Notes under the pieces: generated by a model
What the model saw: the letters and a program-made list of their open reading frames with translations, nothing else
Databases searched by the model: none
What the model was told of the DNA's origin: nothing
Program-made: the position numbers and the translations under genes
In this document: positions 9,296 through 55,484 of the stretch, piece after piece
Numbering within the stretch: the stretch's first letter is position 1
How the letters are laid out: each line of letters begins with the position of its first letter
Assembly (NCBI GenBank): GCA_937888435.1
Contig: CALAQS010000109.1
Span: forward strand, 26,039 to 90,038
Length of the DNA stretch: 64,000 bases
Direction: 5' to 3'
DNA from: an uncultured Acidobacteriota bacterium
GTDB taxonomy: Bacteria > Acidobacteriota > Thermoanaerobaculia > UBA5066

Positions 9296-10036
9296 GTGCG
9301 CGTCTCCGGAGTGCTCCTCGCGGCCGGTGCGTCCACGCGCTTCGGTTCGCCGAAGATGCTCACGCCGGTCGGCGAGGACAGAAAGCCTTTGCTTCAGAAG
9401 GTCTGCGAGACGTGGCTGGAAGCGGGAGTCGGCGAACTCATCGTCGTTCTGGGAAAGGATGCGGACGCGATTCGAGAGCGCCTCGGAGATTTCTCATATG
9501 CGGCGGCTGCTGATGCAGCCGCCGATAGCAGAAAATCTGGTGGCCGGAAGCCGGCTGTCAAGGGCGCGCGCAGCGCGCCGCTCCGCGGTCAAAGACCCTT
9601 GACAGCCGGTTTCCGGCCGCACATCCCGCGATTCGTCCAGAATCCCCGCTGGGAGGCAGGGATGTTTTCTTCTGTGAAAGCGGGCCTCGCCGCGACGGCC
9701 GCCAACTCGACGCACATCGCCCTCTCCCCTGCGGATCTTCCCTTTCTCAGCAAAGAATCCATTCGAACGGTGCTTTCGGCAGTGGCGTCACTCGATGCAG
9801 GCGGATCGAGCCTCGTCGTCCCCACGCACGCCGGCCGGCGCGGGCACCCGCTCTTGATCCCCGCGGCGCTGCGCTCGCGGCTCCTCTCATGGCCCGATTC
9901 CGCGCGGCTCAACCAGCTCTTCGACGAGCCCGACGTCACGGTCCACCCCCTCGAAGGTTTCGACGAGACGATTCTTCGCGACGTCGATACGCCGAACGAT
10001 CTCTTCGCGTCTCTTCCATCCTCTTTTTCCTTCTGA
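9296..10036 (+). CDS. MobA/MocA-like molybdenum cofactor nucleotidyltransferase (probable cytidylyltransferase) with an internal low-complexity insertion.
   Basis: N-terminal LLAAGASTRFG nucleotide-binding motif and NPRWEAGMFSS motif. A 40-aa Ala/Arg-rich insert is encoded by two DNA hairpins (9501-9524, 9542-9618). GTG start. Confidence 0.78.
   Translation: MRVSGVLLAAGASTRFGSPKMLTPVGEDRKPLLQKVCETWLEAGVGELIVVLGKDADAIRERLGDFSYAAAADAAADSRKSGGRKPAVKGARSAPLRGQRPLTAGFRPHIPRFVQNPRWEAGMFSSVKAGLAATAANSTHIALSPADLPFLSKESIRTVLSAVASLDAGGSSLVVPTHAGRRGHPLLIPAALRSRLLSWPDSARLNQLFDEPDVTVHPLEGFDETILRDVDTPNDLFASLPSSFSF
9501..9618 (+). repeat. Two consecutive in-frame hairpin-forming inverted repeats inside mocA (10-bp perfect stem at 9501-9524, and a 23-bp arm inverted repeat at 9542-9564/9596-9618 around a GCGCGC palindrome).
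   Basis: CGGCGGCTGC tgat GCAGCCGCCG, then GGCCGGAAGCCGGCTGTCAAGGG ... CCCTTGACAGCCGGTTTCCGGCC (22/23 complementary). Together they encode the AAAADAAADSRKSGGRKPAVKGARSAPLRGQRPLTAGFRP insert. Confidence 0.8.
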
Positions 10037-35932: not shown

Positions 35933-36720
35933 TTCGATTCACTCTCCTCGTCGCGCACCGGCTGCGCCGCCCACGTCCCCGCCACGGGGCCTGAGACCGG
36001 GGCCGGCGCGATCTGCGTCCCGTCCCACGTGCCCGCGATGCGGCGCGATGCCCCGATCGTCAAGCGGCCGTAAAACTTCGCATCCACGCCGAGCTCGGAG
36101 TCGATCCGCTCGAGCGTGACGCGGTCGCCCACGAACGTGCCCCTGAGAGAACCATGAAACCCGCCGTCGAGGACATAGTCCCCCGAGAGGATTGTGCCGT
36201 CGAGCGAGAGGCGGTAGAAGCCGCGCCGCGCTCCCGGGTTGATGAAGACCTCCCAGCGGCCCGTGAGAGGGTCGGAAAGCGTGGTTCTGAGGGCCTCGCG
36301 GCGGCGCGCGATCTCCTCCCGGAACGCGGCGAGGCGCCGCACGCGCTCGGCGAGCCGCTCGGAAACGGCGAGGCGCCTGTTCTGTCCTGCCTGCACGCGC
36401 GCCCGCGCGTCAGAGGCGGCCTGCTCGGCCTGCTCCAGCGCGTTTCGGTCCAAGATGCCCTCGCGCGCGAGACGAGCGATTTGATTCAGGGCCGAAGTGA
36501 AGTCGGCCTCCGCCCGCGACGCCTGCCCCGAGATCCGGTCGAACTCCTCGAGATCCTCGGTCACGCGCCGCTTCTCCATGTCGACCGACGCCAGCAGGAC
36601 GTCGAGCACGCCATCGCCCGTCCGGCTCGGGACGGGCGCGGCGGCAGCCGGCAGCGCGAGCGTCAGCAGGAGTCCCACCGTCAGGCCGGTGAGCATCGGG
36701 CGCGAAGCCATCCTCGCCAC
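35929..36720 (-). CDS. Hypothetical secreted coiled-coil protein.
   Basis: Signal peptide LTVGLLLTLALPAAAAP and a long coiled-coil segment. First gene of a three-gene overlapping set with the TPR protein and rarA. Confidence 0.55.
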   Translation of the reverse strand: MARMASRPMLTGLTVGLLLTLALPAAAAPVPSRTGDGVLDVLLASVDMEKRRVTEDLEEFDRISGQASRAEADFTSALNQIARLAREGILDRNALEQAEQAASDARARVQAGQNRRLAVSERLAERVRRLAAFREEIARRREALRTTLSDPLTGRWEVFINPGARRGFYRLSLDGTILSGDYVLDGGFHGSLRGTFVGDRVTLERIDSELGVDAKFYGRLTIGASRRIAGTWDGTQIAPAPVSGPVAGTWAAQPVRDEESESK

Positions 36721-36778
36721 TATACGGAAGTTGCGGCCGCCCCATCGCGTCCGGAGTTTCTTTCGGGCGTGGAGGGGG

Positions 36779-36808
36779 CCAGGGGGACCCGGCCCGGGTT
36801 TCCCCTGG
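36779..36808 (-). terminator. Stem-loop immediately downstream of cdnL (candidate terminator or structural element).
   Basis: Near-perfect inverted repeat CCAGGGGGACCCGG C CCGGGTTTCCCCTGG. No clear U-tract. Confidence 0.3.
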
Positions 36809-36813
36809 GCAAT

Positions 36814-37350
36814 TCAGTGGTCGCGGTTATTTCCGGCCAGGACCGCGACGGGACGCCGCTTGAGGATCGCCCGGTCGAGTGCCTTCTCTACTTCGGTCGC
36901 GACCTCGCCCTCCGGCAGCCCGTTGATCTGCGCGATCTCGGAGACGATCAGATAGCGGGCGCGCTCGTACATCTTCTTCTCGCGGAAGGAGAGCGCCTTT
37001 TGTTTCTGCACCCACGTCAGGTTCTTGAGGACGTCCGCGATGTCCGTGAGGCGGCCGGAGCGCATCTTGTCGAGGTTCTGCTTGTACCGGCCCTTCCAGT
37101 CGCCGCTCGGCGGGAGCATCGCGTTCTCGAGAACGCGGAAGACCGAGCCCACGTCCTTGCGCCGCGTGAGCGGGCGGAGGCCGATGCGGTCCGAGTTCCC
37201 GACCGGCACCATCACGCGCGAGTTGTTCCCGATGAGGCGAAGCTGATAGCAGGGCGCGGTCGAGCCTTCGAGGAGGGACTCCTGGATCGTTTCCACGACC
37301 CCGACGCCGTGGTTCGGGTAGACAAGCCTGTCGCCGATCTTGAAAGCCAC
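36814..37350 (-). CDS. cdnL: CarD/CdnL-family RNA polymerase-binding transcription factor.
   Basis: CarD_CdnL_TRCF N-domain FKIGDRLVYPNHGVGVV. Confidence 0.85.
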   Translation of the reverse strand: MAFKIGDRLVYPNHGVGVVETIQESLLEGSTAPCYQLRLIGNNSRVMVPVGNSDRIGLRPLTRRKDVGSVFRVLENAMLPPSGDWKGRYKQNLDKMRSGRLTDIADVLKNLTWVQKQKALSFREKKMYERARYLIVSEIAQINGLPEGEVATEVEKALDRAILKRRPVAVLAGNNRDH

Positions 37351-37408
37351 GGCAAAATCCTCCTTGGAAAGGGGACCAAGAGATTACTCCCGCCCCCTCC
37401 GTGCGTCA

Positions 37409-38005
37409 ATGAGTTTGGCAGGCGCTAAACTCCCCGCCATGCCGAACGATTCCGGCCGCAACTCGCTCGTCGCCGAGATTCCCGTCTCCTTACCCGGGAA
37501 GCCCGACGCCGCGCGCACGGAAGAGCCCGACGAGGTGATGGCCCGCAACATCGCGGGCGTGCGCGCCGAGCGCCTCGCGGGCTACCACGACCATCGGGGC
37601 TCGCTCGTGCCCTTCATGGATTTCACGAGGCCTTTCTGGAACGAACCGATCGTCCACGCGTACGAGTTCACGATCCGGCCCGGGCGCATCAAGGGCTGGG
37701 GCATGCACCGCCGGCAGGCGGACCGCTACTTCGTTCAGACGGGCGACCTGCGAATCGTGCTCCACGACGGGCGCGAGGGCTCCCCCACGAAGAACGCCTT
37801 CTGCGAGTTCTGGTTCGCCGGGAGCGGATCCCTCCTCCTCTACATCCCGCAGGGCGTCTGGCACGCGACGTTGAACTGGGGCACGACGCTCGGGAGGATC
37901 GTGAACTTCGGCACGGCGCGGTTCGACCCCGCGGACCCCGACAAGGCCCGCATCGACCCGCACTCCGGCGTCATCCCGTTCGACTGGACGATCCGGGACG
38001 GCTGA
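37409..38005 (+). CDS. Cupin-fold protein, dTDP-4-dehydrorhamnose 3,5-epimerase (RmlC)-like.
   Basis: RmlC-like beta-barrel region (IKGWGMHRRQADRYFVQTGDLRIVLHD). Start ambiguous (ATG 37409 or 37439). 3' end overlaps the convergent GT2 gene. Confidence 0.5.
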   Translation: MSLAGAKLPAMPNDSGRNSLVAEIPVSLPGKPDAARTEEPDEVMARNIAGVRAERLAGYHDHRGSLVPFMDFTRPFWNEPIVHAYEFTIRPGRIKGWGMHRRQADRYFVQTGDLRIVLHDGREGSPTKNAFCEFWFAGSGSLLLYIPQGVWHATLNWGTTLGRIVNFGTARFDPADPDKARIDPHSGVIPFDWTIRDG

Positions 38006-39074: not shown

Positions 39075-39096
39075 GCCGGGCCGTGACGATAGCAAG

Positions 39097-39183
39097 TGGT
39101 GCCGGAGGAGGGAGTCGAACCCTCACGGCCTTGTGGACCGGGGGATTTTGAGTCCCCTGCGTCTGCCATTCCGCCACTCCGGC
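39097..39183 (-). tRNA. tRNA-Leu (anticodon CAA), class II with long variable arm.
   Basis: Reverse complement reads GCCGGAGTGGCGGAATGGCAGACGCAGGGGACTCAAAATCCCC ... GAGGGTTCGACTCCCTCCTCCGGCACCA. 7-bp acceptor stem GCCGGAG/CTCCGGC, anticodon loop CTCAAAA, T-arm GGTTCGA, encoded CCA. Confidence 0.85.
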
Positions 39184-39197
39184 TCGCCGGAAAGAGT

Positions 39198-39662
39198 CTA
39201 CTGCCAGTCGAGCCGGACGTTGCGGTGGAGGTGCGCGGCGGCGCAGCCGGCGATCGTGCCGAGGACGTTCCAGAAGACGTCGTTCACGTCGGTCGCGCGG
39301 GTCGGCAGGAAGAGCTGGACCGTCTCGATGCCCACGCTGAACAGCGTCCCCGCGATGAGGACGTCCGCGTGGTTCCGCGCGGCGGAGCGGCCGGGGCCGT
39401 CGAGGAACTTCCACAGCAGGAACGCCCACACCGCGAACATCGCGAGGTTTCCGACGATCCCGACCACCGCGTAAAGGAACGCGTTCGACAGGTAGCCGCC
39501 GCGCCCCGCGCGCAGGATGAGGCGCTGGATGTCGTCGAACGGCGCGAGATTCGTGCGCACTCCTCCGCTCCCCTGCACGAGAAGCGTCACGGCGAGGAGG
39601 AGGCACGAATACGAGGCCAGCAGCAGCCCCTGAACGCCCTTGCCGACGCGGATCGTGCGCAC
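39198..39662 (-). CDS. VanZ-family membrane protein.
   Basis: Four TM helices and the VanZ-like FSVGIETVQLFLPTRATDVNDVFWNVLG motif. Only the C-terminal ~155 aa of the long ORF-track frame look protein-like. Confidence 0.62.
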   Translation of the reverse strand: MRTIRVGKGVQGLLLASYSCLLLAVTLLVQGSGGVRTNLAPFDDIQRLILRAGRGGYLSNAFLYAVVGIVGNLAMFAVWAFLLWKFLDGPGRSAARNHADVLIAGTLFSVGIETVQLFLPTRATDVNDVFWNVLGTIAGCAAAHLHRNVRLDWQ

Positions 39663-39722
39663 GGCGCGCAGATTACCCGAACAGGCGTTGACGAGGCCCC
39701 GCCTCCTCCCGACAATGCCTCC

Positions 39723-41033
39723 GTGACGACGCCACCGCCGACTTCGCCCGCGCGCACCACCGCCGTGCCCGCGCACGAGGGTTTTTTCGTCTCGGAGTTT
39801 CTCGGCGAGACGGTGCGCGACGTGGCGCGCCACCCCGTCGGAAAAATCTCGGACTTCGCCGTCGCCACGAGCACGCGCGCCCCCTTTCCGCGCGTGACGG
39901 GCCTCCTCATCCGCGACCGCTTCGAGACGTTCGTCCTGCCCTGGGAGGACGTCGCCATCTTCCAGCGCGGCGCCGTGCGCACCCGGCTCGTGAGGGAGGA
40001 CCTCCTGCATCGTCCCGCGCGGGAGGACGAGATCTTCCTCGCGCGCCATCTTCTCGACAAACAGATCGTGGACATCAACGGCGTGAAGGTCGTGCGCGTG
40101 AACGACCTCAAGCTGGACGTGCTGTCGGGCGACCTCGTGCTCACCGCCGCCGACGTGGGCGTGCGCGGCCTCGTGAGGCGGGTCTTCGGCGCGCGTGTCA
40201 CGCCGCGCGGAGGAAGGCTTTCCGACGCATCTCTTCCGGCGCGGCTCATACCGTGGGACTCGATGCAGCCGCTTCACGGGCGCCTCGAGCGTCTCGAGAC
40301 CACGCTGCCCCAGGAGAAGCTCCAGCGGCTCCATCCGGCCGACATCGCGGAGATCCTGAGCCAGGTCTCGGGCACCGAGCGATCCGGCATCTTCCAGAAG
40401 CTGAACGTCGAGACGGCTGCCGAGACGCTGCACGAGATGGAGCCCGAGATCCAGGCGGAGATCATCGAGGACCTGCCCGAGAGGCGCGCCTCGGAGATCC
40501 TCGAGCAGATGCCCGCGGACGAAGCGGCGGACGTCCTCGGCGAGATCGAGGGCGAGCACGCCCGCGACCTCGTCCAGCTCATGGAGAAGGGCGCGGCCGA
40601 AGAGGTCACCGAGCTGCTCGTGCACGACGAGAACACGGCGGGCGGCCTCATGGGAACCGACTTCGTCACGTTTCCGCCGAATCTCTCCGTGCGCGAGACG
40701 CTCCAGCGCCTCAGACCCCTGGCCCGCGACGCCGAGGCTCTCTTCTACTTCTACGTCGTCGACGAGAAGGATCGCGTGCTGGGCGCGCTCTCGGTGCGCA
40801 ACCTCCTCGCCGCCGACGATGACACGCTTCTCGAGAACGCCATGGCGACGCCCGTGCGTAGCGTCACGGCGGACGTCTCGGCCGACGAGGTCGCCGAGAC
40901 GATGTCCAAGTACGACCTCCTCGCCCTGCCCGTGACCGACCCCGAAGGCGTTCTCGTCGGCATCATCACGATCGACGACGTCGTCGACCGACTTCAACCG
41001 CAGCCTCGCCGCCACCGGCGGAGGCTGCGGTGA
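39723..41033 (+). CDS. Soluble MgtE-N domain plus CBS-pair protein (cytosolic Mg2+-sensing module of MgtE without the transmembrane domain).
   Basis: MgtE_N helical domain (LPQEKLQRLHPADIAEIL ... EILEQMPADEAADVLGEI), followed by two CBS motifs ending GIITIDDVVD. The ORF stops right after the CBS pair with no hydrophobic segments. GTG start assumed. Confidence 0.78.
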   Translation: MTTPPPTSPARTTAVPAHEGFFVSEFLGETVRDVARHPVGKISDFAVATSTRAPFPRVTGLLIRDRFETFVLPWEDVAIFQRGAVRTRLVREDLLHRPAREDEIFLARHLLDKQIVDINGVKVVRVNDLKLDVLSGDLVLTAADVGVRGLVRRVFGARVTPRGGRLSDASLPARLIPWDSMQPLHGRLERLETTLPQEKLQRLHPADIAEILSQVSGTERSGIFQKLNVETAAETLHEMEPEIQAEIIEDLPERRASEILEQMPADEAADVLGEIEGEHARDLVQLMEKGAAEEVTELLVHDENTAGGLMGTDFVTFPPNLSVRETLQRLRPLARDAEALFYFYVVDEKDRVLGALSVRNLLAADDDTLLENAMATPVRSVTADVSADEVAETMSKYDLLALPVTDPEGVLVGIITIDDVVDRLQPQPRRHRRRLR

Positions 41034-42322
41034 TCGCGCCGGCCGCCGACACGGCCTCTTCGCGCTCCGAGGTCCGCGGCTGGAAGCGGCGTGTGATGCT
41101 CTTTCTCGCGGTCCTCGGACCCGGGATCATCACGGCGAACGTCGACAACGACGCGGGCGGCATCGCGACGTACTCCATCGCGGGCGCCCACTTCGGCTAC
41201 TCGCTGCTCTGGACGCTCGTCCCCATCACGATCGCCCTCATCGTCGTCCAGGAGATGTCCGCACGCCTCGGCGCCATCACGGGAAAGGGCCTCGGCGAGC
41301 TCATACGCGAGAACTACGGCCTGAGGGCCACGTTCTACCTGCTCGTCGCCCTCCTCGTGACGGACATCGGGAACACGGTCGCCGAGTTCGCCGGCTGGGC
41401 GGCCGCGCTGGAGATCTTCGGGATCCCGCGCTTCGTCTCCGTGCCCATCGGCGCGTTCGTCGTGTGGTGGATCGTCGTGAAAGGGAACTACAAGTCGGTC
41501 GAGAAGGTATTCCTGATCGCCTGCACGATCTACCTGACGTACATCCTGTCGGCGATCTTCGCGAAACCCGTCTGGAAGGACGTCCTCAAGCAGACTTTCG
41601 AGCCCAGGATCGAGTCGAGCGCCGCGTGGATCCTGATGATCATCGGGATCGTCGGAACGACGATCGCGCCCTGGATGCAGTTCTACCTCCAGGCCTCCAT
41701 CGTGGAAAAACGAATCGGCCCGGAGGAGTACAAGCTCTCGCGCTGGGACGTCATCGTCGGCTGCATCCTGACGGACGTGGTCGCGTTCTTCATCATCGTC
41801 GCCTGCGCGGCCACCCTCTTTCCGAAGGGGATTCGCATCGAAGGCGCCGAGCAGGCGGCGCTCGCCTTGAAGCCGCTCGCGGGGAAATGGGCCGGTACGC
41901 TCTTCGCCTTCGGGCTCGCGAACGCCTCGCTGTTCGCGGCCTCCATCCTGCCGCTCGCCACGGCCTATTCCATCTGCGAGGGGCTGGGCTTCGAGGCCGG
42001 TGTGAACAAGACCTGGAGCGAGGCGCCCCAGTTCAATACGCTCTACACGGGCATGATCGTGATCGGCGCCGGCATCATCCTGATTCCCGGGGTTCCGCTC
42101 TTCCCCGTCCTCTTCCTGTCCCAGGTGCTGAACGGGTTGCTCCTCCCGTTCGTCCTCGTGTTCATGTGCCTCCTCATCAACCGCGAGGACCTCATGGGTG
42201 AGCACGTGAACGGCCGCGTGTGGAACTGGGTGGCCTGGGGGACCTGCGTCGTCATGATCGGACTGACGCTGGTCCTCGTCGTCACGTCGATCTGGCCCGG
42301 GCTGTTCCCGGCGAGCCCCTAA
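41030..42322 (+). CDS. NRAMP/SLC11-related transporter with non-canonical metal-site residues (NRMT-like, putative Mg2+ transporter).
   Basis: 11-12 TM helices with NRAMP fold motifs. TM1 has DAGG where canonical NRAMP has DPGN. TM6 has APW where canonical has MPH. GTGA overlap with the upstream MgtE-N/CBS gene. Confidence 0.82.
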   Translation: MIAPAADTASSRSEVRGWKRRVMLFLAVLGPGIITANVDNDAGGIATYSIAGAHFGYSLLWTLVPITIALIVVQEMSARLGAITGKGLGELIRENYGLRATFYLLVALLVTDIGNTVAEFAGWAAALEIFGIPRFVSVPIGAFVVWWIVVKGNYKSVEKVFLIACTIYLTYILSAIFAKPVWKDVLKQTFEPRIESSAAWILMIIGIVGTTIAPWMQFYLQASIVEKRIGPEEYKLSRWDVIVGCILTDVVAFFIIVACAATLFPKGIRIEGAEQAALALKPLAGKWAGTLFAFGLANASLFAASILPLATAYSICEGLGFEAGVNKTWSEAPQFNTLYTGMIVIGAGIILIPGVPLFPVLFLSQVLNGLLLPFVLVFMCLLINREDLMGEHVNGRVWNWVAWGTCVVMIGLTLVLVVTSIWPGLFPASP

Positions 42323-42426: not shown

Positions 42427-43101
42427 ATGCGTCGTTTCCTCGGCTTTCTCGCTCTCGCCTGCGCCGTTCTGACGCTCGCGGCGCCCGCTTACGCTCAGGA
42501 CCGCACCGGCACGTGGGAGATCTCGCCGTTCGCGGGCGGCTACTTTGGCGGTCGCCTTTACGGCAACTACACGGTTCCCTTCTCGTCCGGCACGGTGTCG
42601 AACGTCCGATTCCTCGAGCCGGACGACGACCTCGCGTACGGCGCACGCCTCGCGTACAACATCACGCGCCATTTCGGCTTCGAAGTCGACTGGACCTCCG
42701 CGCGTGCCGATCTCCGCTCTCCCGACTTCTTCGGCTCCGTTCCGCGACATCTCAACGTCGGGACCCTGCGCCAGAACGTCTACGAGGCGAACGCCCTGTT
42801 CAATTTCGGGCGTCGGCGCGTGATCGGCTACGTCGGCATAGGCGCCGGCAGCGCGGTCGAGAAGCGGGACATCGCCGGCGTCAACCCGGCCGCGACCGGC
42901 CGTTTCACGGCGAATCTCTCGGTCGGAGGAAAGTTCTTCTTCGTCCCGCGCGTCGGGCTGCGCATCGACGGCCGCTACCGCGCCATCGACCTCCGCTCTG
43001 ACGATGGCACCTCCTGTGACCACAACATTTTCTGCGACAACCGGCGGGGAAACTGGTCGTACAACGGAGAGGTCACCGGAGGGCTCGTCTTCGCCTTCTG
43101 A
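42427..43101 (+). CDS. Outer-membrane beta-barrel protein (OmpA-like/OMP_b-brl family).
   Basis: Signal peptide LALACAVLTLAAPAYA. Alternating beta-strand pattern with a terminal aromatic (LVFAF). AGGAGG RBS. Confidence 0.7.
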   Translation: MRRFLGFLALACAVLTLAAPAYAQDRTGTWEISPFAGGYFGGRLYGNYTVPFSSGTVSNVRFLEPDDDLAYGARLAYNITRHFGFEVDWTSARADLRSPDFFGSVPRHLNVGTLRQNVYEANALFNFGRRRVIGYVGIGAGSAVEKRDIAGVNPAATGRFTANLSVGGKFFFVPRVGLRIDGRYRAIDLRSDDGTSCDHNIFCDNRRGNWSYNGEVTGGLVFAF

Positions 43102-45750: not shown

Positions 45751-47466
45751 TCACTTCCGGGGTGCGGCCTCCTCGCCGGCGAAGGCCGAGATGAAGACGG
45801 ACTTCTGAAGATAACTCGTTTGGTTCGTGATGTCGTCGCGCACCGCGATCGAGAGCTTCTGGCCGCCCGGGATCATGATGAGTTTCACGCTGTAGACGAA
45901 ATCCTTGCGCGCGAGCGCCTCGAACTCCTTCGCGCTGTACTCGATCGGCTGGGGCTGCGTCGTGAGGTCCGACTGCTTTCCCGCCGAGTCGATGACGACG
46001 AAGTAGAAGACGACGCGGCCGCGCACCTTCGAGCCCTCGGGCAGCATCGCGAGGCGCGAGTAGGGAATCCGGATGACCACCGGGACCGCGAAGTTCTCGC
46101 GGTCGGCCGGGGCGGGCTTCCCGACTTCGAGACCCACGGCGAGGGGATTGTCGTCGCGCGGGAAGAATAGCGCCGAGGTGACCGCCTCGCGCACCTTCGT
46201 CTCGACGCCCTTCTCGAGATAGCTGCGGCGCGCGCGCACGGTCAGCCCCTTCTTCTTCAGCTTGACCTCGACCTTGTGCGGGCGGTCGAGCCCGGTGCGC
46301 AGGCTCCGGTAGCCGATCGAGTAGTACGACGTGTAGTCCTTCTCGATGTTCTTGAGGGCGCCGAGGACGTCGTTCTTGTTCAGGATGGCCTCGCCGCCGG
46401 TTTCCTCGGCCATGAGGCTCAGCATCGACTCGAGGTTGTTTTGCTCGAGGAACGCGTCGATGCGCTGGGACGTGGCGCGGTTCTCGGCCGATATGTTCGA
46501 ATCCACCGTGAGGCCCGCCGCATCGATCGCGTAGATCGACACGCCTGAGGAATTCGCCGCCTGCACGACGGAAAGGTACTTCGTGGTCCGATCGAACTCG
46601 AAAGTCGACATCAGGCCCACGGAGTTGGGGTACTTGTCGGAGATGTACTTCCACAGCTCCGCCCCCGGAGACTGCGGCAGGCCGTCGGAGATGTGGATGA
46701 AAATCTTGCGGCCCTCGACGCCGGCGAGCTGGTTGATCGTCGTGTTCATCGCGTCGATCGTGAAGTTCAGGTCGTTGTCGAGCGACTGGCAGTAGGACCG
46801 CACCCGGCCCGCAGCCTCGTCCGCGGTCGTGGAGTCGTCGATCGCCTTGATCACGTCCCGCCGGTCGGAGAGGTCCTGCTGACCCATGGTGCTCTCGTCC
46901 TCGATCTGCCTGAGGACGTCCGACAGGTCGCGGCCGTCGTTCGTGAACTTTCTCCGGATCTTCAGCGACCGGTTGAACGCGACGATCATGCCCTCGACGT
47001 TGTCCTTGACGTTCTCGCGGACGAAGATCTCGACGTTCCTGAGGACGCGGTTGCGGTTGAACGGCGAGAGGTGAAGACTGTCCACGAAAACGATGATGCG
47101 GGTCCTCGGCATCTTCTCGCGCGCCGGCGCCGGGGCGGGAGCCGGCGCGGGCGCGGGCGCGGGCGGAGTCTCCTCGACGGGCAGGACGAAGCGGCCCTGC
47201 TCCACGGGAGAGAAGTTCGTGACGAGCTGCTCGAGGTTGTCCTCGACGACGATGAAGTCCTCTTTTTTCAGGCCGGTCACCCGGTTCCCCTTCCCGTCGG
47301 TCACGACGACGTCGAGGTTCGTCACGGTGATGCTCTCGCGGGCGACGAATCCTCCCGCCGGCGTCTCGGGCTTGCCGGCGGGAGCCTGGGACACGGCGGA
47401 CGATCCGGCGAGCGCGACGACGAGGAGGAGCGGGGCCCGAAGGAGGAAAGCGGGGCGAATCGACAT
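45751..47466 (-). CDS. Secreted VWA-domain protein (VWFA-related Acidobacterial-type).
   Basis: Signal peptide and a (PA)7 linker. VWA MIDAS-like region (IIVFVDSLHLSP). Resembles the TIGR03436 family from memory. Confidence 0.7.
   Translation of the reverse strand: MSIRPAFLLRAPLLLVVALAGSSAVSQAPAGKPETPAGGFVARESITVTNLDVVVTDGKGNRVTGLKKEDFIVVEDNLEQLVTNFSPVEQGRFVLPVEETPPAPAPAPAPAPAPAREKMPRTRIIVFVDSLHLSPFNRNRVLRNVEIFVRENVKDNVEGMIVAFNRSLKIRRKFTNDGRDLSDVLRQIEDESTMGQQDLSDRRDVIKAIDDSTTADEAAGRVRSYCQSLDNDLNFTIDAMNTTINQLAGVEGRKIFIHISDGLPQSPGAELWKYISDKYPNSVGLMSTFEFDRTTKYLSVVQAANSSGVSIYAIDAAGLTVDSNISAENRATSQRIDAFLEQNNLESMLSLMAEETGGEAILNKNDVLGALKNIEKDYTSYYSIGYRSLRTGLDRPHKVEVKLKKKGLTVRARRSYLEKGVETKVREAVTSALFFPRDDNPLAVGLEVGKPAPADRENFAVPVVIRIPYSRLAMLPEGSKVRGRVVFYFVVIDSAGKQSDLTTQPQPIEYSAKEFEALARKDFVYSVKLIMIPGGQKLSIAVRDDITNQTSYLQKSVFISAFAGEEAAPRK
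47113..47164. repeat. GC hexamer microsatellite (GCGGGC-like x4-5) encoding the (PA)n linker of the VWA protein.
   Basis: Tandem gccggcgcgggcgcgggcgcgggcgg visible on the plus strand. Confidence 0.6.
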
Positions 47467-47505
47467 GGCAGGATTGTACGGGGCGCGCGGATAGAATCCC
47501 GTCCG

Positions 47506-48084
47506 ATGCCATTCCGCGTCCGCCGCCACCTCACTGCCGGGCTTCTCGTGCTCGTTCCGCTCGTCATCACGGCGGTCGTCATCCGCTTCGTCTTCAACGT
47601 GATCGACGGCGCCAGCCAGCCCCTCACCGAGCGCCTCGTGGGCCGGGCCATCCCGGGCCTGGGGCTCGTCCTGACGATCGCCGTCATCTGGCTGACGGGC
47701 CTTCTTTCCTCGAATCTCGTCGGGAAGAAATTCCTTGAACTTTTCGGCCGCCTCTTGGAGAATCTCCCCCTCGTCAAGACGGTCTATACCGCTTCGAAGC
47801 AACTCGTCGAGGCTGTGTCGCCGGGCGGCCGTCGGGCCTTCCAGCGAGTCGTCCTTGTCGAATTTCCTCATAAGGGGACCTTTGCGTTGGGATTCGTGAC
47901 GGGGAACGGCATCGGCTCACTCGACGCGAGCACGCTTTCGGTCTACGTTCCAACGGCGCTAAACCCGACGAGCGGTTTCCTGATATTCGCGAAGGAAAGC
48001 GATATTCTCGACCCCCGCCTCACGGTGGAGGAGGGGATCAAGCTCGTCGTGTCGGGCGGAGTCGTCAGGCCGCACGGGAACTAG
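47506..48084 (+). CDS. DUF502-family membrane protein.
   Basis: Two N-terminal TM helices and a conserved DUF502 core (LVKTVYTASKQL ... VLVEFPHKGTFALGFVTG). Confidence 0.72.
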   Translation: MPFRVRRHLTAGLLVLVPLVITAVVIRFVFNVIDGASQPLTERLVGRAIPGLGLVLTIAVIWLTGLLSSNLVGKKFLELFGRLLENLPLVKTVYTASKQLVEAVSPGGRRAFQRVVLVEFPHKGTFALGFVTGNGIGSLDASTLSVYVPTALNPTSGFLIFAKESDILDPRLTVEEGIKLVVSGGVVRPHGN

Positions 48085-48119
48085 AAGCCTTGCCGGGCGG
48101 TCCAACGGAGCGGCCGGAG

Positions 48120-49058
48120 ATGAGCGCGAAGCGGCGGGAGACCGAAAGGAGTGAACGGGCGATGACGGGAAATCTCACCGGCAGGGGACGAACGGTTCGG
48201 CGGATCGCCGCGGCCGGTCTCGCCGTGCTGTCGCTCGGGGTCGCGGGTTGCGACAAGTTCAAGAGCAAACAGCTCATCCGGGAGGGAAACGCCTACTTCA
48301 AAGAGCAGCTCTACGAGGACGCCCTGAAGAAGTATGAAGCGGCCCAGGCCCTCGATCCGACCGAGGTTCGCCTCGACAAGTTCGTCGCGATGGGCTACAT
48401 GGCCCTCTATAACCCCGGCTCGACGCACCCGAAGGACATCGAGGCGCTGAGCCGGTCGATCGAACACTTCAAGAAATACCTCGCCGCCAAGCCCGACGAC
48501 GACAAGGCCGCGAGGTTCCTCGTCACGACGTATATGAACGCCCAGAAATACGACGAGGCGATCAAGTATTTCAAGGAGCTCGTGGAGAAGCACCCCCAGG
48601 ACTCGCAGGCCGTGCAGACGATCGCGATGCTCTACGCGAAGCAGGGCGACTACGAGAACTCCATCGAGTGGCAGAAGAAGCGCGGCGTGCTCGAGCCGAA
48701 CAACGCCGAAGTGTTCTACACGATGGGTGTCACGGCCTGGGACAAGTCCTACAACACCGTGGGCGTCGACATCTCCCCCGACAAGGGCCTGACGCCCGAG
48801 AAGCGGAAGGAGATCCTGGATTTCGGCATGGCGCAGCTCGACAGGGCGATCCAGCTCAACCCCGACTACTTCGAGGCCATGCTCTACAAGAACCTGCTCT
48901 TCCGGCAGTACGTGCGCATCGAGCCGGACCCCGCTAAAGTCGCGGACCTGAACGCCAAGGCGACCGAGTGGCAGCAGAAGGCGCTCGAGATCAGGAAGAA
49001 GATCCAGGACAAGCAGCGCGCCGAGCAGGCCAGGAAGAATCCGCTCGAGGCGATGTAG
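48120..49058 (+). CDS. TPR-repeat lipoprotein encoded upstream of the TonB system.
   Basis: Lipobox LSLGVAGC. Multiple TPR units (AYFKEQLYEDALKKYEAA, YAKQGDYENSIEW). Confidence 0.7.
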   Translation: MSAKRRETERSERAMTGNLTGRGRTVRRIAAAGLAVLSLGVAGCDKFKSKQLIREGNAYFKEQLYEDALKKYEAAQALDPTEVRLDKFVAMGYMALYNPGSTHPKDIEALSRSIEHFKKYLAAKPDDDKAARFLVTTYMNAQKYDEAIKYFKELVEKHPQDSQAVQTIAMLYAKQGDYENSIEWQKKRGVLEPNNAEVFYTMGVTAWDKSYNTVGVDISPDKGLTPEKRKEILDFGMAQLDRAIQLNPDYFEAMLYKNLLFRQYVRIEPDPAKVADLNAKATEWQQKALEIRKKIQDKQRAEQARKNPLEAM

Positions 49059-49076
49059 GGAGCCAGGAGAGCACGC

Positions 49077-49808
49077 ATGTTCGAAGCCTCGCTCATCGAG
49101 TCAGGGAAGCACAAGGGGACCCAGCGCTGGTACACGCTGCCGCTCTCGTTCCTGATCCACCTCGTCGTGGTCGGGACCGCGGTCGGCCTCTCGATGTGGT
49201 TCATCGAGGACATTCCCGAGCCCCCGATCCCGGTGCAGTTCTACTCAAGCCAGGCGGCCCCGCCGCCCCCGCCGCCGCCGCCGGCGAAGGCCGCGGCCGC
49301 GAAGCCGACTCAGAAAGTCGAGCCCGTCAAGCCGAGCCAGGTGACATCCCCCCTCGTCGTTCCGGAGTTCCTTCCGCCGCCGACGAGCGCCCCCGAGCCG
49401 GATAACGCCGGCGTGGAAGGCGGCGTGGAGGGCGGCGTGGAGGGCGGCGTCGCGGGCGGCGTCATGGGCGGCGTCCTCGGCGGCGTGAAGGGCGGAATGC
49501 TCGGCGAGAAGGGCGAGGAGCCCCTCCGGGTCGGCGGCGAGGTCAAGGAGCCCGTCGAAATCTCGCGCGTGAAGCCGTCGTATCCCGAAGCGGCCCGCAA
49601 GGCCCGCATGCAGGGCGTCTGCATCCTTGAGGCCATCATCACGAAATCGGGCGATGTCGAGTCCGTTCGCGTGCTCCGCGGTCTGAACCCGCTCCTCGAC
49701 AACGCGGCGATTCGTGCGGTCTCGCAATGGAAATACAAGCCTGCGACCTTCAATGGACGCGCCGTTCCGGTCTATCTGACGGTCACCGTTACCTTTACGC
49801 TCCAGTAA
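49077..49808 (+). CDS. tonB: Energy transducer TonB.
   Basis: N-terminal TM anchor, a Pro-rich spacer, a Gly-Gly-Val 4-residue repeat array and the TonB C-terminal domain (ARMQGVCILEAIITKSGDV ... YKPATFNGRAV). Confidence 0.85.
   Translation: MFEASLIESGKHKGTQRWYTLPLSFLIHLVVVGTAVGLSMWFIEDIPEPPIPVQFYSSQAAPPPPPPPPAKAAAAKPTQKVEPVKPSQVTSPLVVPEFLPPPTSAPEPDNAGVEGGVEGGVEGGVAGGVMGGVLGGVKGGMLGEKGEEPLRVGGEVKEPVEISRVKPSYPEAARKARMQGVCILEAIITKSGDVESVRVLRGLNPLLDNAAIRAVSQWKYKPATFNGRAVPVYLTVTVTFTLQ
49412..49498. repeat. Tandem 12-bp repeats (GGCGGCGTGGAG-like, ~7 units) inside tonB encoding (GGVx)n.
   Basis: Direct reading of ggcgtggaaggcggcgtggagggcggcgtggagggcggcgtcgcgggcggcgtcatgggcggcgtcctcggcggcgtgaagggcgg. 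Confidence 0.7.
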
Positions 49809-49835
49809 GGCGCCGGCGGCCACTCGAAATAGAAT

Positions 49836-49875
49836 AGAAACGCAAGGACCACGAGCTCCGCTCGGAAACGCAAGG
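49836..49875 (+). promoter_or_regulatory. Direct repeat GAAACGCAAGGA (x2, 28-nt spacing) plus AATAGAATAGAAA tract upstream of exbB. Candidate operator or regulatory element.
   Basis: Copies at 49836-49847 and 49864-49875. The second copy overlaps the exbB RBS. The AT-rich tract at 49828-49840 is unusual in this GC-rich DNA. Confidence 0.3.
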
Positions 49876-49887
49876 AGGACGATTCAA

Positions 49888-50568
49888 ATGGATATGAGTC
49901 TGATGGGGCTGATCAAGACGATGTCGCCGCCCGCGCTGGCGATCTTCTTCCTGCTCTGCCTGCTTTCGGTCTACTCGCTCGCCGTGTCGGTCGAGCGGTG
50001 GATAACCTTCCAGAAGGCGAAGCAGCAGTCGGTCAAGTTCGCCCTGGAGGTCGGCCAGCTCCTGAAGCAGGACAAGCTCAGGGAGGCGATCGACCTCGCC
50101 AAGAAGTACAAGAACAGCCACGTCGCGAAGGTCGTGTCCGCGGGGCTCCTGGAGTTCGCCTACGAGGCGCACGGCGCCGCCGCGCAGGGGCACGACACCG
50201 TCGCCGCCGCGGAGCGCGCGGTCGAGCGCGCCTCGATGATGACAACCGCGGACCTCAAGAAGGGCCTCGGCGGTCTTGCCACGATCGCGACGACGGCGCC
50301 GTTCATCGGCCTTCTCGGCACCGTCATCGGCATCATTAACGCCTTCCGCGGCATGGCGGCGTCCGGGGCCGGCGGTCTCGGCTCGGTGTCGGCCGGCATC
50401 GCGGAAGCTCTCGTCACGACCGCCTTGGGCCTCTTCGTCGCCATTCCGGCGGTGTGGCTCTACAACATGTTCCTCAACAAGATCGAGCGCTTCCAGGTCG
50501 AGATGTCGAATTCGGCCTCCGAGCTCATCGATTACTTCATGAAGCGCCAGGCGACGAAGGCCGCGTGA
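49888..50568 (+). CDS. exbB: MotA/TolQ/ExbB-family proton channel.
   Basis: Three TM helices and the TolQ/ExbB signature (ATTAPFIGLLGTVIGIINAF). Confidence 0.88.
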   Translation: MDMSLMGLIKTMSPPALAIFFLLCLLSVYSLAVSVERWITFQKAKQQSVKFALEVGQLLKQDKLREAIDLAKKYKNSHVAKVVSAGLLEFAYEAHGAAAQGHDTVAAAERAVERASMMTTADLKKGLGGLATIATTAPFIGLLGTVIGIINAFRGMAASGAGGLGSVSAGIAEALVTTALGLFVAIPAVWLYNMFLNKIERFQVEMSNSASELIDYFMKRQATKAA

Positions 50569-50641
50569 GGACCGTCCGGTCAACAGAGATCCCGCCAGCC
50601 GCCCTCGAGCGGATAGCGGCGCAGTAGCGAGGAGTTCACTC

Positions 50642-51061
50642 ATGGGAATGGATAGCTTCGGCGGCCGTCAGAGCATGAAGAGCGACATCAACGTGACGCC
50701 GCTCGTCGACGTGTGCCTCGTTCTCCTCATCATCTTCATGGTCGTGACGCCGATGCTCCAGAAGGGCAAGCCCGTGACGCTCCCGCAGACCGACCGGCCC
50801 GACAAGAAGCCCGAGTCCGACAAAGAGCTCATCATCTCCGTGATTTCCGACAAGACCATCTTCATCGACACGAAGTGGTTCCCCCCGAAGGATTTCGAAG
50901 CGAAGATGAAGGAGATCGGCGAGCGCGCGGCGAACAAGGACATCCTCATCAAGGCCGACAGAACCCTGAACTTCGGCGACGTCAAGAACGTCATGAGGAT
51001 GATCAAGGACGGCGGGTTCGAGCGCGTCGGCCTCATCACCGAGAAGAAACCGGACAAGTAA
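50642..51061 (+). CDS. exbD: ExbD/TolR-family biopolymer transport protein.
   Basis: INVTPLVDVCLVLLIIFMV TM segment plus a periplasmic domain. Confidence 0.88.
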   Translation: MGMDSFGGRQSMKSDINVTPLVDVCLVLLIIFMVVTPMLQKGKPVTLPQTDRPDKKPESDKELIISVISDKTIFIDTKWFPPKDFEAKMKEIGERAANKDILIKADRTLNFGDVKNVMRMIKDGGFERVGLITEKKPDK

Positions 51062-51072
51062 GGAGTTATCCC

Positions 51073-51516
51073 ATGGACATCGGAGGTGGCGACGGACCCA
51101 AGTCGGAGATCAACGTGACTCCGCTCGTGGACGTCGTTCTCGTCCTTCTCATCATCTTCATGGTCGTCCAACCGCTTCTGCAGCGCGGCTACGACGTGCA
51201 GGTCCCTCCGAACGCGCCCGCGACACCGCCGAACACGCCGCCACCGACGGACCAGATCATCGTGTCGCTCACGGCAAACCGGGAGTACTACCTGAACAAG
51301 GAGAAGGTCGACCCGCAGAACATCGCGATCCGCCTCCAGGAAGTCCTGCGGAATCGCAGCTCGAAGGTCGTCTTTTTCTCGGCCGAGGACACCGTCAAAT
51401 ACGACGATGCGATGAAGCTCATGGACATCGTCCGCAACAGCGGGAGCGGCGACAAGAAGGTGAACATCGGCATCGTCATGGACTGGGTCAACCCGGCCGG
51501 GCCGGCGACTCCCTGA
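51073..51516 (+). CDS. exbD: Second ExbD/TolR-family protein.
   Basis: INVTPLVDVVLVLLIIFMVV TM segment. It is a paralog of the preceding gene. Confidence 0.85.
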   Translation: MDIGGGDGPKSEINVTPLVDVVLVLLIIFMVVQPLLQRGYDVQVPPNAPATPPNTPPPTDQIIVSLTANREYYLNKEKVDPQNIAIRLQEVLRNRSSKVVFFSAEDTVKYDDAMKLMDIVRNSGSGDKKVNIGIVMDWVNPAGPATP

Positions 51517-51555
51517 GCTTGAGATCCGCGGCGCCCTCCTCTTCCACGACCCTCG

Positions 51556-51580
51556 ACGTCCCCGGTCATGCCGGGGACGT
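51556..51580 (+). terminator. Perfect 10-bp stem / 5-nt loop hairpin after the exbD pair (candidate intrinsic terminator).
   Basis: ACGTCCCCGG TCATG CCGGGGACGT, followed by TGCCTGTCTG (weak U-tract). Confidence 0.4.
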
Positions 51581-51631
51581 TGCCTGTCTGAGCCTCCCCT
51601 TTTTGCCCCCGACGAAAGGACGTTCACGCGC

Positions 51632-54064
<2,433 letters not shown>

Positions 54065-54074
54065 GGAGGGACCC

Positions 54075-55484
54075 ATGGGCACGATGACGAAGTCGGGCTC
54101 GACGCAGCCGGCGTTTCCAAGAACGCTTCCCAGGAGGCTCGGCCTCGTCGACGCGACGACGATCGTCGCAGGATCGATGATCGGCTCGGGCATCTTCATC
54201 ACGTCGGCCGACATCGCGCGGCAGGTCAAGAGCGCGAGCCTCCTCCTCCTCGTCTGGGTCTTCACGGCGCTCGTCACGGTGGCGGGCGCCTGGAGCTACG
54301 GAAAGCTCGCCATGGCGTTCCCGAAAGCCGGCGGTCAGTACGTCTACCTGCGCGAGGCGTGGGGCGACCTCGGCGGGTTCCTTTACGGCTGGGCGGCCCT
54401 TCTCGTCATCCAGACGGGCACGATCGCGGCCGTGGCCGTCGCCTTCGCGAAGTATCTCGGCGTCCTCATTCCGGCCATTTCCTCGAAACACGTGTTCTTC
54501 AAGGCGAAATTTCTCAGCATCACGCCGCTCGAGATCGTCGCGATCCTGCTGATCGCCCTCCTCACCTGGTGGAACACGACGAGCGTCCAGAACGGCGCCC
54601 GCCTCCAGAACGTCTTCACCGCGGCCAAGGTCCTCTCCCTCGTGGGTCTCCTGTCCGTGTGTTTCCTGGCCGGCGGGCAGCTCGGGAACATCTCGTGGGC
54701 GCTTCCCGCGGCCGGGGACCTCAAGATTCCCCTCCTATGGGCATTCGCCGTGGCCACCGTCGGCTCGCTTTTCTCGGCTGACGCGTGGAACAACGTGACC
54801 TTCCTCGGCGAGGAAGTGCGGGACGCCGAGACGAACGTGCCGAAAGCCCTCGTGTACGGAACCGGGCTCGTGACTCTACTCTACGTCCTCGCGAACGTGG
54901 GCTACCTGAGCGCCCTCCCTCTCTCCGGCATCGCGTCGGCTCCCGAGGACCGCGTCGCGACGGCGGCCATCGGGGCCGTCTCGGGCTCAGCCGAGGCGGG
55001 CACGCCGGCGCTCATCATGGCCTGCATCATTCTCGTGTCGACGTTCGGCTGCCTGAACGGCCTCATCCTGGCGGGGTCGCGTGTCCTTTACGCGATGTCG
55101 CGCGACGGACTTTTCCTGCCGGCCTTCAGCGAAGTCGCGCCGAAGACGATGATCCCGGTAAACGCCCTCGTGGCGCAGTTTCTCTGGTCGGCCCTTTTGT
55201 GCCTCTCCGGCAGGTACGGCGACCTCCTGGATTACGTCATTCCGACGGTCCTGATGTTCTACATCGCGACGATCGTCGGGCGATGGAAGCTCGCCCGGAC
55301 GAATCCCGCCCTCGCGCCGCGCTCCCTCGCGGACCGCGTCATCCCCGTCCTCTACGTCATCGCGACGGTCTACGTGACGATTGCCCTCGTGGTTTTCAAG
55401 CCTACATTTACCGTGCGCGGTCTGGTCATCGTGGCCCTCGGCGTCCCGGCGTTCTTCCTGTTCCGGAAAAAGCCGGCGGCCTGA
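54075..55484 (+). CDS. APC-superfamily amino acid permease.
   Basis: 12 TM helices with an N-terminal AGSMIGSGIFITSADIA consensus. Confidence 0.82.
   Translation: MGTMTKSGSTQPAFPRTLPRRLGLVDATTIVAGSMIGSGIFITSADIARQVKSASLLLLVWVFTALVTVAGAWSYGKLAMAFPKAGGQYVYLREAWGDLGGFLYGWAALLVIQTGTIAAVAVAFAKYLGVLIPAISSKHVFFKAKFLSITPLEIVAILLIALLTWWNTTSVQNGARLQNVFTAAKVLSLVGLLSVCFLAGGQLGNISWALPAAGDLKIPLLWAFAVATVGSLFSADAWNNVTFLGEEVRDAETNVPKALVYGTGLVTLLYVLANVGYLSALPLSGIASAPEDRVATAAIGAVSGSAEAGTPALIMACIILVSTFGCLNGLILAGSRVLYAMSRDGLFLPAFSEVAPKTMIPVNALVAQFLWSALLCLSGRYGDLLDYVIPTVLMFYIATIVGRWKLARTNPALAPRSLADRVIPVLYVIATVYVTIALVVFKPTFTVRGLVIVALGVPAFFLFRKKPAA

Follow-up and report, generated by a model that had tools for sequence, protein, structure and literature searches.

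Two adjacent genes of an uncultured Acidobacteriota bacterium raise the question of which metal is imported by an NRAMP-family transporter whose metal-binding residues have been substituted, and of what the MgtE-like protein encoded immediately upstream contributes. The genes lie on the plus strand of a 64,000-nucleotide (nt) stretch of contig CALAQS010000109.1 (GenBank assembly GCA_937888435.1), referred to below as the window: an accessory gene (39723-41033), encoding a soluble protein made of PRC-barrel, MgtE_N and paired CBS domains, and a transporter gene (41030-42322). A first-pass annotation of this DNA had likened the transporter to the NRAMP-related Mg2+ transporters (NRMTs) and had proposed Mg2+, rather than Mn2+ or Fe2+, as its substrate. 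Judged by its sequence, the transporter belongs to the NRMT branch of the NRAMP family, outside the canonical MntH clades, and its partner displays the Mg2+-binding positions of the MgtE sensor domains. We therefore consider it probable that the pair constitutes a two-gene operon for regulated uptake of Mg2+ (and Mn2+).

The transporter groups with NRMTs

The transporter open reading frame (ORF) starts with GTG, encodes 430 aa and exhibits the codon-position GC pattern of a real gene (0.58/0.44/0.94, the last value being GC3) in a window of 68% GC. Homologs with 99% identity, such as P0001, have equal length. Pfam PF01566 (Nramp) matches the protein with 345.8 bits over model positions 1-356 of 357, which establishes its family and fold. 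Because this family is large (975 representatives of 50%-identity clusters at E<=1e-30) and the motifs described below are nearly invariant in 80 relatives, the match reflects homology to a large family and not a chance pattern. These 80 genomic relatives, used throughout, are the best loci of a genome scan and cover many phyla; the Acidobacterium capsulatum and Clostridium acetobutylicum proteins discussed later are not among them. Long ORFs on the opposite strand (40994-42205 and 39198-41015) are high-GC artifacts, the exception being the second ORF's 3' part, a genuine VanZ-like gene.

Among all PDB sequences, a search singled out EleNRMT, the NRAMP-related Mg2+ transporter of Eggerthella lenta (PDB 7QIA/7QIC/7QJI/7QJJ; Ramanadane et al. 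2022; PMC8806188), as the best solved relative (7QIA; 8.8e-109, 368 bits), with 45.6% identity over 397 aligned residues on re-alignment. The best canonical NRAMP, DraNramp, reached only 119 bits (2e-33) and 30.1% identity on re-alignment. Curated models gave the same picture: the protein scored 172.9 bits against the NCBIfam MntH model NF001923 (cut-off 430) and 77.8 bits against TIGR01197 (nramp; cut-off 272.5), and the generic Nramp_1 was the sole model that it passed. The canonical motif pair DPGN/AxxMPH occurs in none of 58 diverse full-length relatives (50%-identity cluster representatives, down to 31% identity). In a neighbor-joining tree, the window protein clusters with six Thermoanaerobaculia metagenome-assembled genomes (MAGs; 81-92% identity), and EleNRMT falls on its side of the long branch leading to DraNramp, the single canonical outgroup sequence. 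The placement suspected in the first-pass annotation is thus corroborated, although in public sources the label "Mn2+/Fe2+ NRAMP family transporter" is attached to this gene and to its relatives.

The metal site carries the NRMT signature

Residue correspondence was established by HMMER alignments to the sequences of solved structures, which are gapless through the two motifs forming the metal site. The unwound segment of transmembrane helix 1 (TM1) reads VDNDAGGIATYS (41141-41176, residues 38-49), in which D41-A-G-G44 aligns with D55-A-G-G58 of EleNRMT and with the DPGN of DraNramp; D41 is the conserved metal-binding Asp and G44 replaces the canonical Asn. In TM6, which reads GTTIAPWMQFY (41654-41686, residues 209-219), T210-T-I-A213-P-W215 aligns with T224-T-I-A227-P-W229 of EleNRMT and with the ATVMPH motif of DraNramp, T210 replacing Ala, A213 replacing Met and W215 (EleNRMT W229) replacing the first TM6b His. 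The substitutions read in the first-pass annotation (Pro to Ala and Asn to Gly in TM1, Met to Ala and His to Trp in TM6) are thus confirmed at metal-site positions, and the Ala to Thr change at residue 210 adds one more. In place of the canonical DPGN and AxxMPH, the transporter therefore displays DAGG and TTIAPW, an exact fit to the published NRMT signature, which is DxxG-TxxA/T versus DxxN-A/CxxM in canonical NRAMPs (Ramanadane et al. 2022; PMC8806188). In EleNRMT, this Thr is the substitution of greatest consequence for Mg2+, the T224A mutation abolishing Mg2+ transport (PMC8806188). Among the genomic relatives, D41, G44 and W215 are found in 80/80 and T210 in 79/80, while A213 is found in 72/80 and is otherwise T or S.

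Residues of the H+ pathway are replaced as well. Both TM6b histidines are gone, the second being replaced by L220 (41687-41689), directly 3' of the TM6 motif; this residue corresponds to N234 of EleNRMT, and its DraNramp counterpart falls in a gap of the local alignment. The TM3 Asp is also gone, T116 being equivalent to T130 of EleNRMT and D131 of DraNramp, an Asp to Thr loss common with EleNRMT. Three residues further on, E119 (41384-41386; EleNRMT E133) is the single retained TM3 carboxylate and is kept in 77 of the 80 relatives. Q365 corresponds to Q379 of EleNRMT, and the TM9 Arg positions lie in a gapped part of the alignment.

The partner is a soluble protein with MgtE-like sensor domains

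The start of the accessory gene is uncertain. GTG 39723 is likely, yielding a 436-aa protein that fits the 420-445 aa of its homologs, and GTG 39762 is an alternative, which would give MPAHEGFFVSEF, like the MPFFAGDIFVSDV N termini of Nitrospirota homologs. A longer ORF listed upstream (39096-41033) was rejected since its first part crosses a tRNA gene and the VanZ-like gene, both on the minus strand. The protein has no membrane domain, and its Pfam matches are MgtE_N (92 bits), CBS (66 bits) and PRC (25 bits, 1.7e-5 for the whole protein), an architecture common to its homologs, the family being dominated by exactly this layout. No fusion to a transporter occurs among the 150 best 50%-cluster representatives, the longest of which has 546 aa.

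Residues 187-428, encoded by 40281-40997, match the N domain and CBS pair of Thermus MgtE (native residues 12-256) in an alignment at 3.2e-42, and a Foldseek search with the AlphaFold2 (AF2) model of the protein returned MgtE/CBS matches exclusively, MgtE cytosolic domains being at the top. The adjacent MgtE-type Mg2+ sensor module noticed in the first pass is therefore real. In MgtE, these domains act as the Mg2+ sensor of the channel gate (PMC5882242). According to the alignment, and with site assignments taken from the same work, all six acidic Mg2+ ligand positions of the Thermus domains are kept: E234 corresponds to E59 (site Mg7), D266 to D91 (Mg4), D270 to D95 (Mg6), D398 to D226 (Mg5), D419 to D247 (Mg4) and D422 to D250 (Mg5). 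Of 58 NRMT-linked accessory homologs, 54-56 retain D266, D270 and D419. The protein is no full MgtE channel, scoring 174.2 against a cut-off of 232.75 with TIGR00400 (mgtE) and matching positions 24-252 of 450 only. Of that channel, it has only the N domain and the CBS pair, without the plug helix (E258/D259) or the pore, and ends 14 residues past the CBS pair. At the place of the acidic plug helix of MgtE, it has a basic C-terminal tail, PQPRRHRRRLR (40998-41030). Such tails are common but not universal: Nitrospirota homologs at 45% identity have them (RKKRRKL and similar), Terriglobia homologs do not, and the 58 NRMT-linked proteins have a median of four K/R in their last 10 residues (range 0-7).

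The N-terminal region (39780-40280) comprises two PRC-barrel-like modules, residues 20-100 and 103-186, with PRC E values of 0.016 and 0.012 for the respective halves. The second module contains the best-conserved stretch of the whole protein, LLDKQIVDINGxKxVRVNDLKL (residues 110-131; 40050-40115), which is nearly invariant between 45%-identical homologs. While the first barrel and the MgtE part are modeled with confidence by AF2, residues 107-194 have predicted local distance difference test (pLDDT) values below 50, and it may be that this stretch folds only upon binding a partner. Our literature search found no paper characterizing the accessory partner, none joining PRC-barrel, MgtE and CBS domains, and no description of the PRC extension or of the basic tail.

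The gene pair is conserved across phyla

Of 76 assessable loci, spread over many phyla, 61 have the accessory gene next to the NRMT gene; it is thus one of the MgtE-like fragments known to be associated with NrmT, the name under which the transporters were introduced in a study where clostridial genes rescued Mg2+ uptake (Shin et al. 2014; PMC4072509). In that study, "most group members" had an adjacent gene for a homolog of the MgtE cytoplasmic domain, and feedback regulation was speculated upon. Among the 80 loci, the accessory gene is directly upstream on the same strand in 54, and convergent or downstream in a few more. The reverse check gives the same answer: next to the accessory homologs of Nitrospirota, the following gene is again Nramp. 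The pairing spans Acidobacteriota, Nitrospirota, Desulfobacterota-type lineages, Planctomycetota, Omnitrophota, Coriobacteriia and others, with reading frames that usually overlap or are closely spaced.

The position of the partner has occasionally changed. In one subclade labeled Deltaproteobacteria/Actinomycetota (L013, L014, L020 and L022, as well as L018), it sits downstream of the NRMT gene in convergent orientation, on the opposite strand, and in L070 it is downstream on the same strand. The pairing thus survives rearrangement. The surrounding genes behave differently, since the order tRNA-Leu, VanZ, accessory, NRMT, outer-membrane beta-barrel protein, TsaE and Nnr is a conserved feature of the Thermoanaerobaculia relatives (L001-L006) only, while across phyla the accessory-NRMT pair alone is conserved.

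The operon has a junction typical of translational coupling and no riboswitch

The junction between the two genes (41020-41033) reads GGAGG-N5-GTGA. It consists of a Shine-Dalgarno sequence (GGAGG, 41020-41024) 5 nt upstream of the NRMT start codon (GTG, 41030-41032), and of the accessory stop codon (TGA, 41031-41033), the two genes overlapping by 4 nt; this layout is typical of translational coupling. Upstream of the accessory gene, the gap of ~40 nt that separates it from the divergent VanZ-like gene contains a sigma-70-like promoter match, TTGACG-17-GACAAT (39688-39716, plus strand), identified by consensus only. This match, the sole one, puts the transcription start at ~39723, on the first candidate GTG, which would imply either that the mRNA is leaderless or that translation begins at the second GTG (39762).

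The gap leaves no room for a riboswitch leader. Consistently, no M-box (RF00380) was found in the window at the Rfam gathering threshold, nor in 39150-39900 at E<=1; the sole Rfam match upstream of the operon, to psaA (16.5 bits, E 0.2), is noise. In relatives, the situation is different: an M-box precedes the orthologous operon in 7 of the 22 scanned (L017, L021, L023, L028, L044, L051 and L078). These riboswitches score 126-137 bits for the six complete matches and 57.6 bits in L028, where the match is cut by the contig end. Their carriers, which include Terriglobia, Geobacteraceae-like lineages, Coriobacteriia and one Peptococcaceae genome, share 56-61% identity with the window transporter and are scattered across the tree. 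Since the window operon has no M-box and only a ~40-nt gap with one promoter-like match, control is more likely to be post-translational, through the accessory protein.

Proposed mechanism

The window transporter is a LeuT-fold SLC11 relative whose metal site lacks the soft Met and the Asn (A213 and G44 instead) and has acquired a Thr hydroxyl (T210). By EleNRMT precedent, these changes would widen the pocket and allow a largely hydrated Mg2+ to fit. Non-protonatable residues, W215, L220 and T116, occupy the positions of the TM6b histidines and of the TM3 proton-relay Asp (DraNramp D131); the predicted mode of transport is therefore H+-uncoupled uniport, with the membrane potential as its driving force. 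EleNRMT itself is uncoupled from H+ and transports Mg2+ and Mn2+, but not Ca2+ (Ramanadane et al. 2022; PMC8806188). The substrates of the window protein are likely to be Mg2+ and Mn2+ as well, and at physiological ion ratios Mg2+ would dominate in this organism. As for the accessory protein, it most likely binds cytosolic Mg2+ at its conserved acidic sites and, in the Mg2+-bound state, would restrain the transporter when Mg2+ is sufficient, thus standing in for the M-box riboswitch that controls many orthologs.

How the two proteins would interact, physically or in regulation, is a matter for a more tentative proposal. The PRC-barrel/MgtE_N/CBS protein could be a detachable Mg2+ gate acting in trans: its sensor would close on cytosolic Mg2+, dock via the second PRC-like segment and/or the basic tail, and block the LeuT-fold NRMT. 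We view this as a reasonable candidate, although we would not yet bet on it. If true, a regulatory module derived from a channel would have been put to use on a carrier of unrelated fold, taking the place of riboswitch control in lineages like this one.

Alternative explanations

Several observations weigh against regulated Mg2+ uptake as described above, some concerning the role of the partner and others the substrate. To our knowledge, nobody has yet demonstrated an interaction of an NRMT with its accessory protein. Over the family of 58 NRMT-linked accessory homologs, the ligands of sites Mg5 and Mg7 are variable. The accessory gene is absent within 6 kb in 15 of the 76 assessable relatives, no transporter residue tracks its presence when 62 NRMTs with the partner are compared with 15 without (test, >=80% vs <=30% conservation), and co-expressing the A. 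capsulatum partner changed nothing in B. subtilis complementation (PMC4072509). The last three points, together with the lack of a confident AF2 fold for residues 107-194, would suit an accessory protein that does not regulate the transporter, but is a CBS protein that senses Mg2+/nucleotides independently, or a metal chaperone, its co-location reflecting shared expression. Yet such a protein would hardly be expected to stay paired with the NRMT over so many phyla, usually in overlapping or closely spaced reading frames, to be built from the very two domains that serve as the Mg2+ sensor of the gate in MgtE (PMC5882242), and to belong to a family dominated by exactly this architecture. We therefore regard this alternative as unlikely, though it is the most serious of the three considered here.

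The second alternative accepts the NRMT placement but holds that the protein is physiologically a Mn2+ importer, whose MgtE-like partner senses Mn2+ or some other signal. Its best argument is the A. capsulatum NrmT, which is the only tested acidobacterial NrmT and is likewise riboswitch-less and accompanied by an MgtE-like partner: the rescue of a B. subtilis mutant defective in Mn2+ uptake was complete, whereas that of a Mg2+-uptake mutant was partial and seen only at millimolar Mg2+ (PMC4072509). EleNRMT also binds Mn2+ about four-fold more tightly (Kd ~100 uM, vs ~400 uM for Mg2+), with a Km for Mn2+ of ~120 uM (PMC8806188). Moreover, the M-box is regarded as the mark of the Mg2+-specific, high-affinity NrmT subset (Shin et al. 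2014; PMC4072509), to which the window operon, having no M-box leader, does not belong; the six Thermoanaerobaculia relatives have no M-box either. Against this, a Mn2+ Km near 100 uM in the face of competing millimolar Mg2+ is ill-suited to scavenging a trace metal, and T210, whose counterpart in EleNRMT is needed specifically for Mg2+, is kept in all but one of the 80 relatives. In addition, M-box-regulated orthologs are interleaved in the tree with riboswitch-less ones without any change in the motif, and none of the six MgtE Mg2+ ligand positions is lost in the partner. A dedicated Mn2+ importer is thus, in our view, slightly less plausible still than an unrelated partner. The proposal that Mg2+ rather than Mn2+ or Fe2+ is transported is supported with one qualification: the link to Mg2+ holds, through the M-box in 7 of 22 relatives and the six MgtE ligands, while the exclusion of Mn2+ was too strong, since EleNRMT moves both metals and the A. 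capsulatum protein rescued Mn2+ uptake.

Finally, a canonical H+-coupled MntH/NRAMP transition-metal transporter with motifs changed by neutral drift, as PF01566 membership and the public label might suggest, is highly improbable and contradicted already by the sequence tests, namely the failed curated MntH and nramp models, a bit score three-fold closer to EleNRMT than to DraNramp, the absence of DPGN/AxxMPH from the 58 diverse relatives, and the replacement of the Asn, the Met and both TM6b histidines by residues that are invariant across 80 relatives.

Regulated uptake of Mg2+ (and Mn2+) by an NRMT with an MgtE-like partner hence remains the reading that we prefer. It matters for reconstructions of metal homeostasis in uncultured Acidobacteriota, where proteins labeled "Mn2+/Fe2+ NRAMP" are predicted from their sequences to be H+-uncoupled Mg2+/Mn2+ carriers. 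The question of what the partner does has stood since 2014, and this locus offers a clean test case for it, with no riboswitch, six intact MgtE Mg2+ ligands and predicted translational coupling.

Neighboring genes

On the accessory side, the operon is flanked by two minus-strand genes, both divergent from the accessory gene: a VanZ-like gene (39198-39680; Pfam VanZ, 67 bits) and a tRNA-Leu(CAA) gene (39097-39183). On the other side, ~100 nt past the NRMT stop codon, starts a gene for an outer-membrane beta-barrel protein (42427-43101, plus strand; Pfam OMP_b-brl) with the signal peptide MRRFLGFLALACAVLTLAAPAYA. There is no terminator-like site in between, and the two genes may be co-transcribed, this synteny being found in close relatives only. 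No further Mg2+ or Mn2+ transporter was seen among the window genes scanned. Two ORFs with a good coding signal, 45751-47871 (minus strand, 706 aa) and 36154-37428 (plus strand, 424 aa), gave no Pfam hit at E<=1e-5, and the region 48090-55484 (plus strand) contains ordinary chromosomal genes encoding a TPR protein, TonB, ExbB, a membrane H+-pyrophosphatase (602 bits) and an amino-acid permease.

Two features were seen in relatives. In Nitrospirota, a 200-aa gene with a faint PhoU match, which does not occur in the window, lies divergently upstream of the accessory-NRMT pair (L081, 3105-3707; L082, 3141-3743; both minus strand). In the Terriglobia MAG L021, the region ~2 kb downstream of the NRMT gene has two matches to the Acido-Lenti-1 small RNA (9490-9536, minus strand, and 9628-9675, plus strand; 44 and 41 bits).

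Comparison with known systems

Both the NRMT family and the gene pairing have been published (Shin et al. 2014; Ramanadane et al. 2022), and this locus is an ordinary further case. From the transporter the field learns nothing new; the mildly interesting part is the mechanism of the PRC/MgtE_N/CBS partner. Judged by phylum, riboswitch absence and gene arrangement, the closest published situation is that of the A. capsulatum NrmT and its partner (Acp2977/Acp2976; PMC4072509), where the transporter gene, again without an M-box, is immediately downstream of the MgtE-like gene. One difference is that the A. capsulatum protein, when placed in B. subtilis, served chiefly to transport Mn2+. The founding member, C. 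acetobutylicum NrmT (Ca_c0685/CabNRMT), likewise combines an Nramp-related gene and an MgtE-cytoplasmic-domain homolog in one operon (PMC4072509). However, that operon is under M-box control and its MgtE-like homolog is split in two genes, whereas the window has no riboswitch and a single 436-aa gene.

As for the proteins of known structure, EleNRMT shares with the window transporter its clade, its length class, identical DAGG and TTIAPW site motifs, the retained TM3 Glu and TM10 Gln, and the loss of both TM6b histidines. The two differ in origin (Actinomycetota for EleNRMT, Thermoanaerobaculia-like Acidobacteriota for the window protein) and at the second TM6b His position, which is Asn in EleNRMT and Leu here. 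Canonical MntH/NRAMP proteins (DraNramp, ScaDMT and EcoDMT) have in common with it PF01566, the LeuT fold, a metal site at the unwound TM1/TM6 and the conserved Asp, but at ~30% identity their DPGN/AxxMPH motifs, with the soft Met ligand, and their H+-relay residues are replaced in the window protein. The MgtE channel of Thermus thermophilus (PDB 2YVY/2YVX) is the counterpart of the accessory protein, in which its N and CBS domains are kept along with E59, D91, D95, D226, D247 and D250. In contrast to the channel, the accessory protein is devoid of the plug helix and of the five-helix transmembrane pore, has gained two N-terminal PRC-barrel-like modules and a basic C-terminal tail, and is encoded separately, beside a transporter of an unrelated fold.

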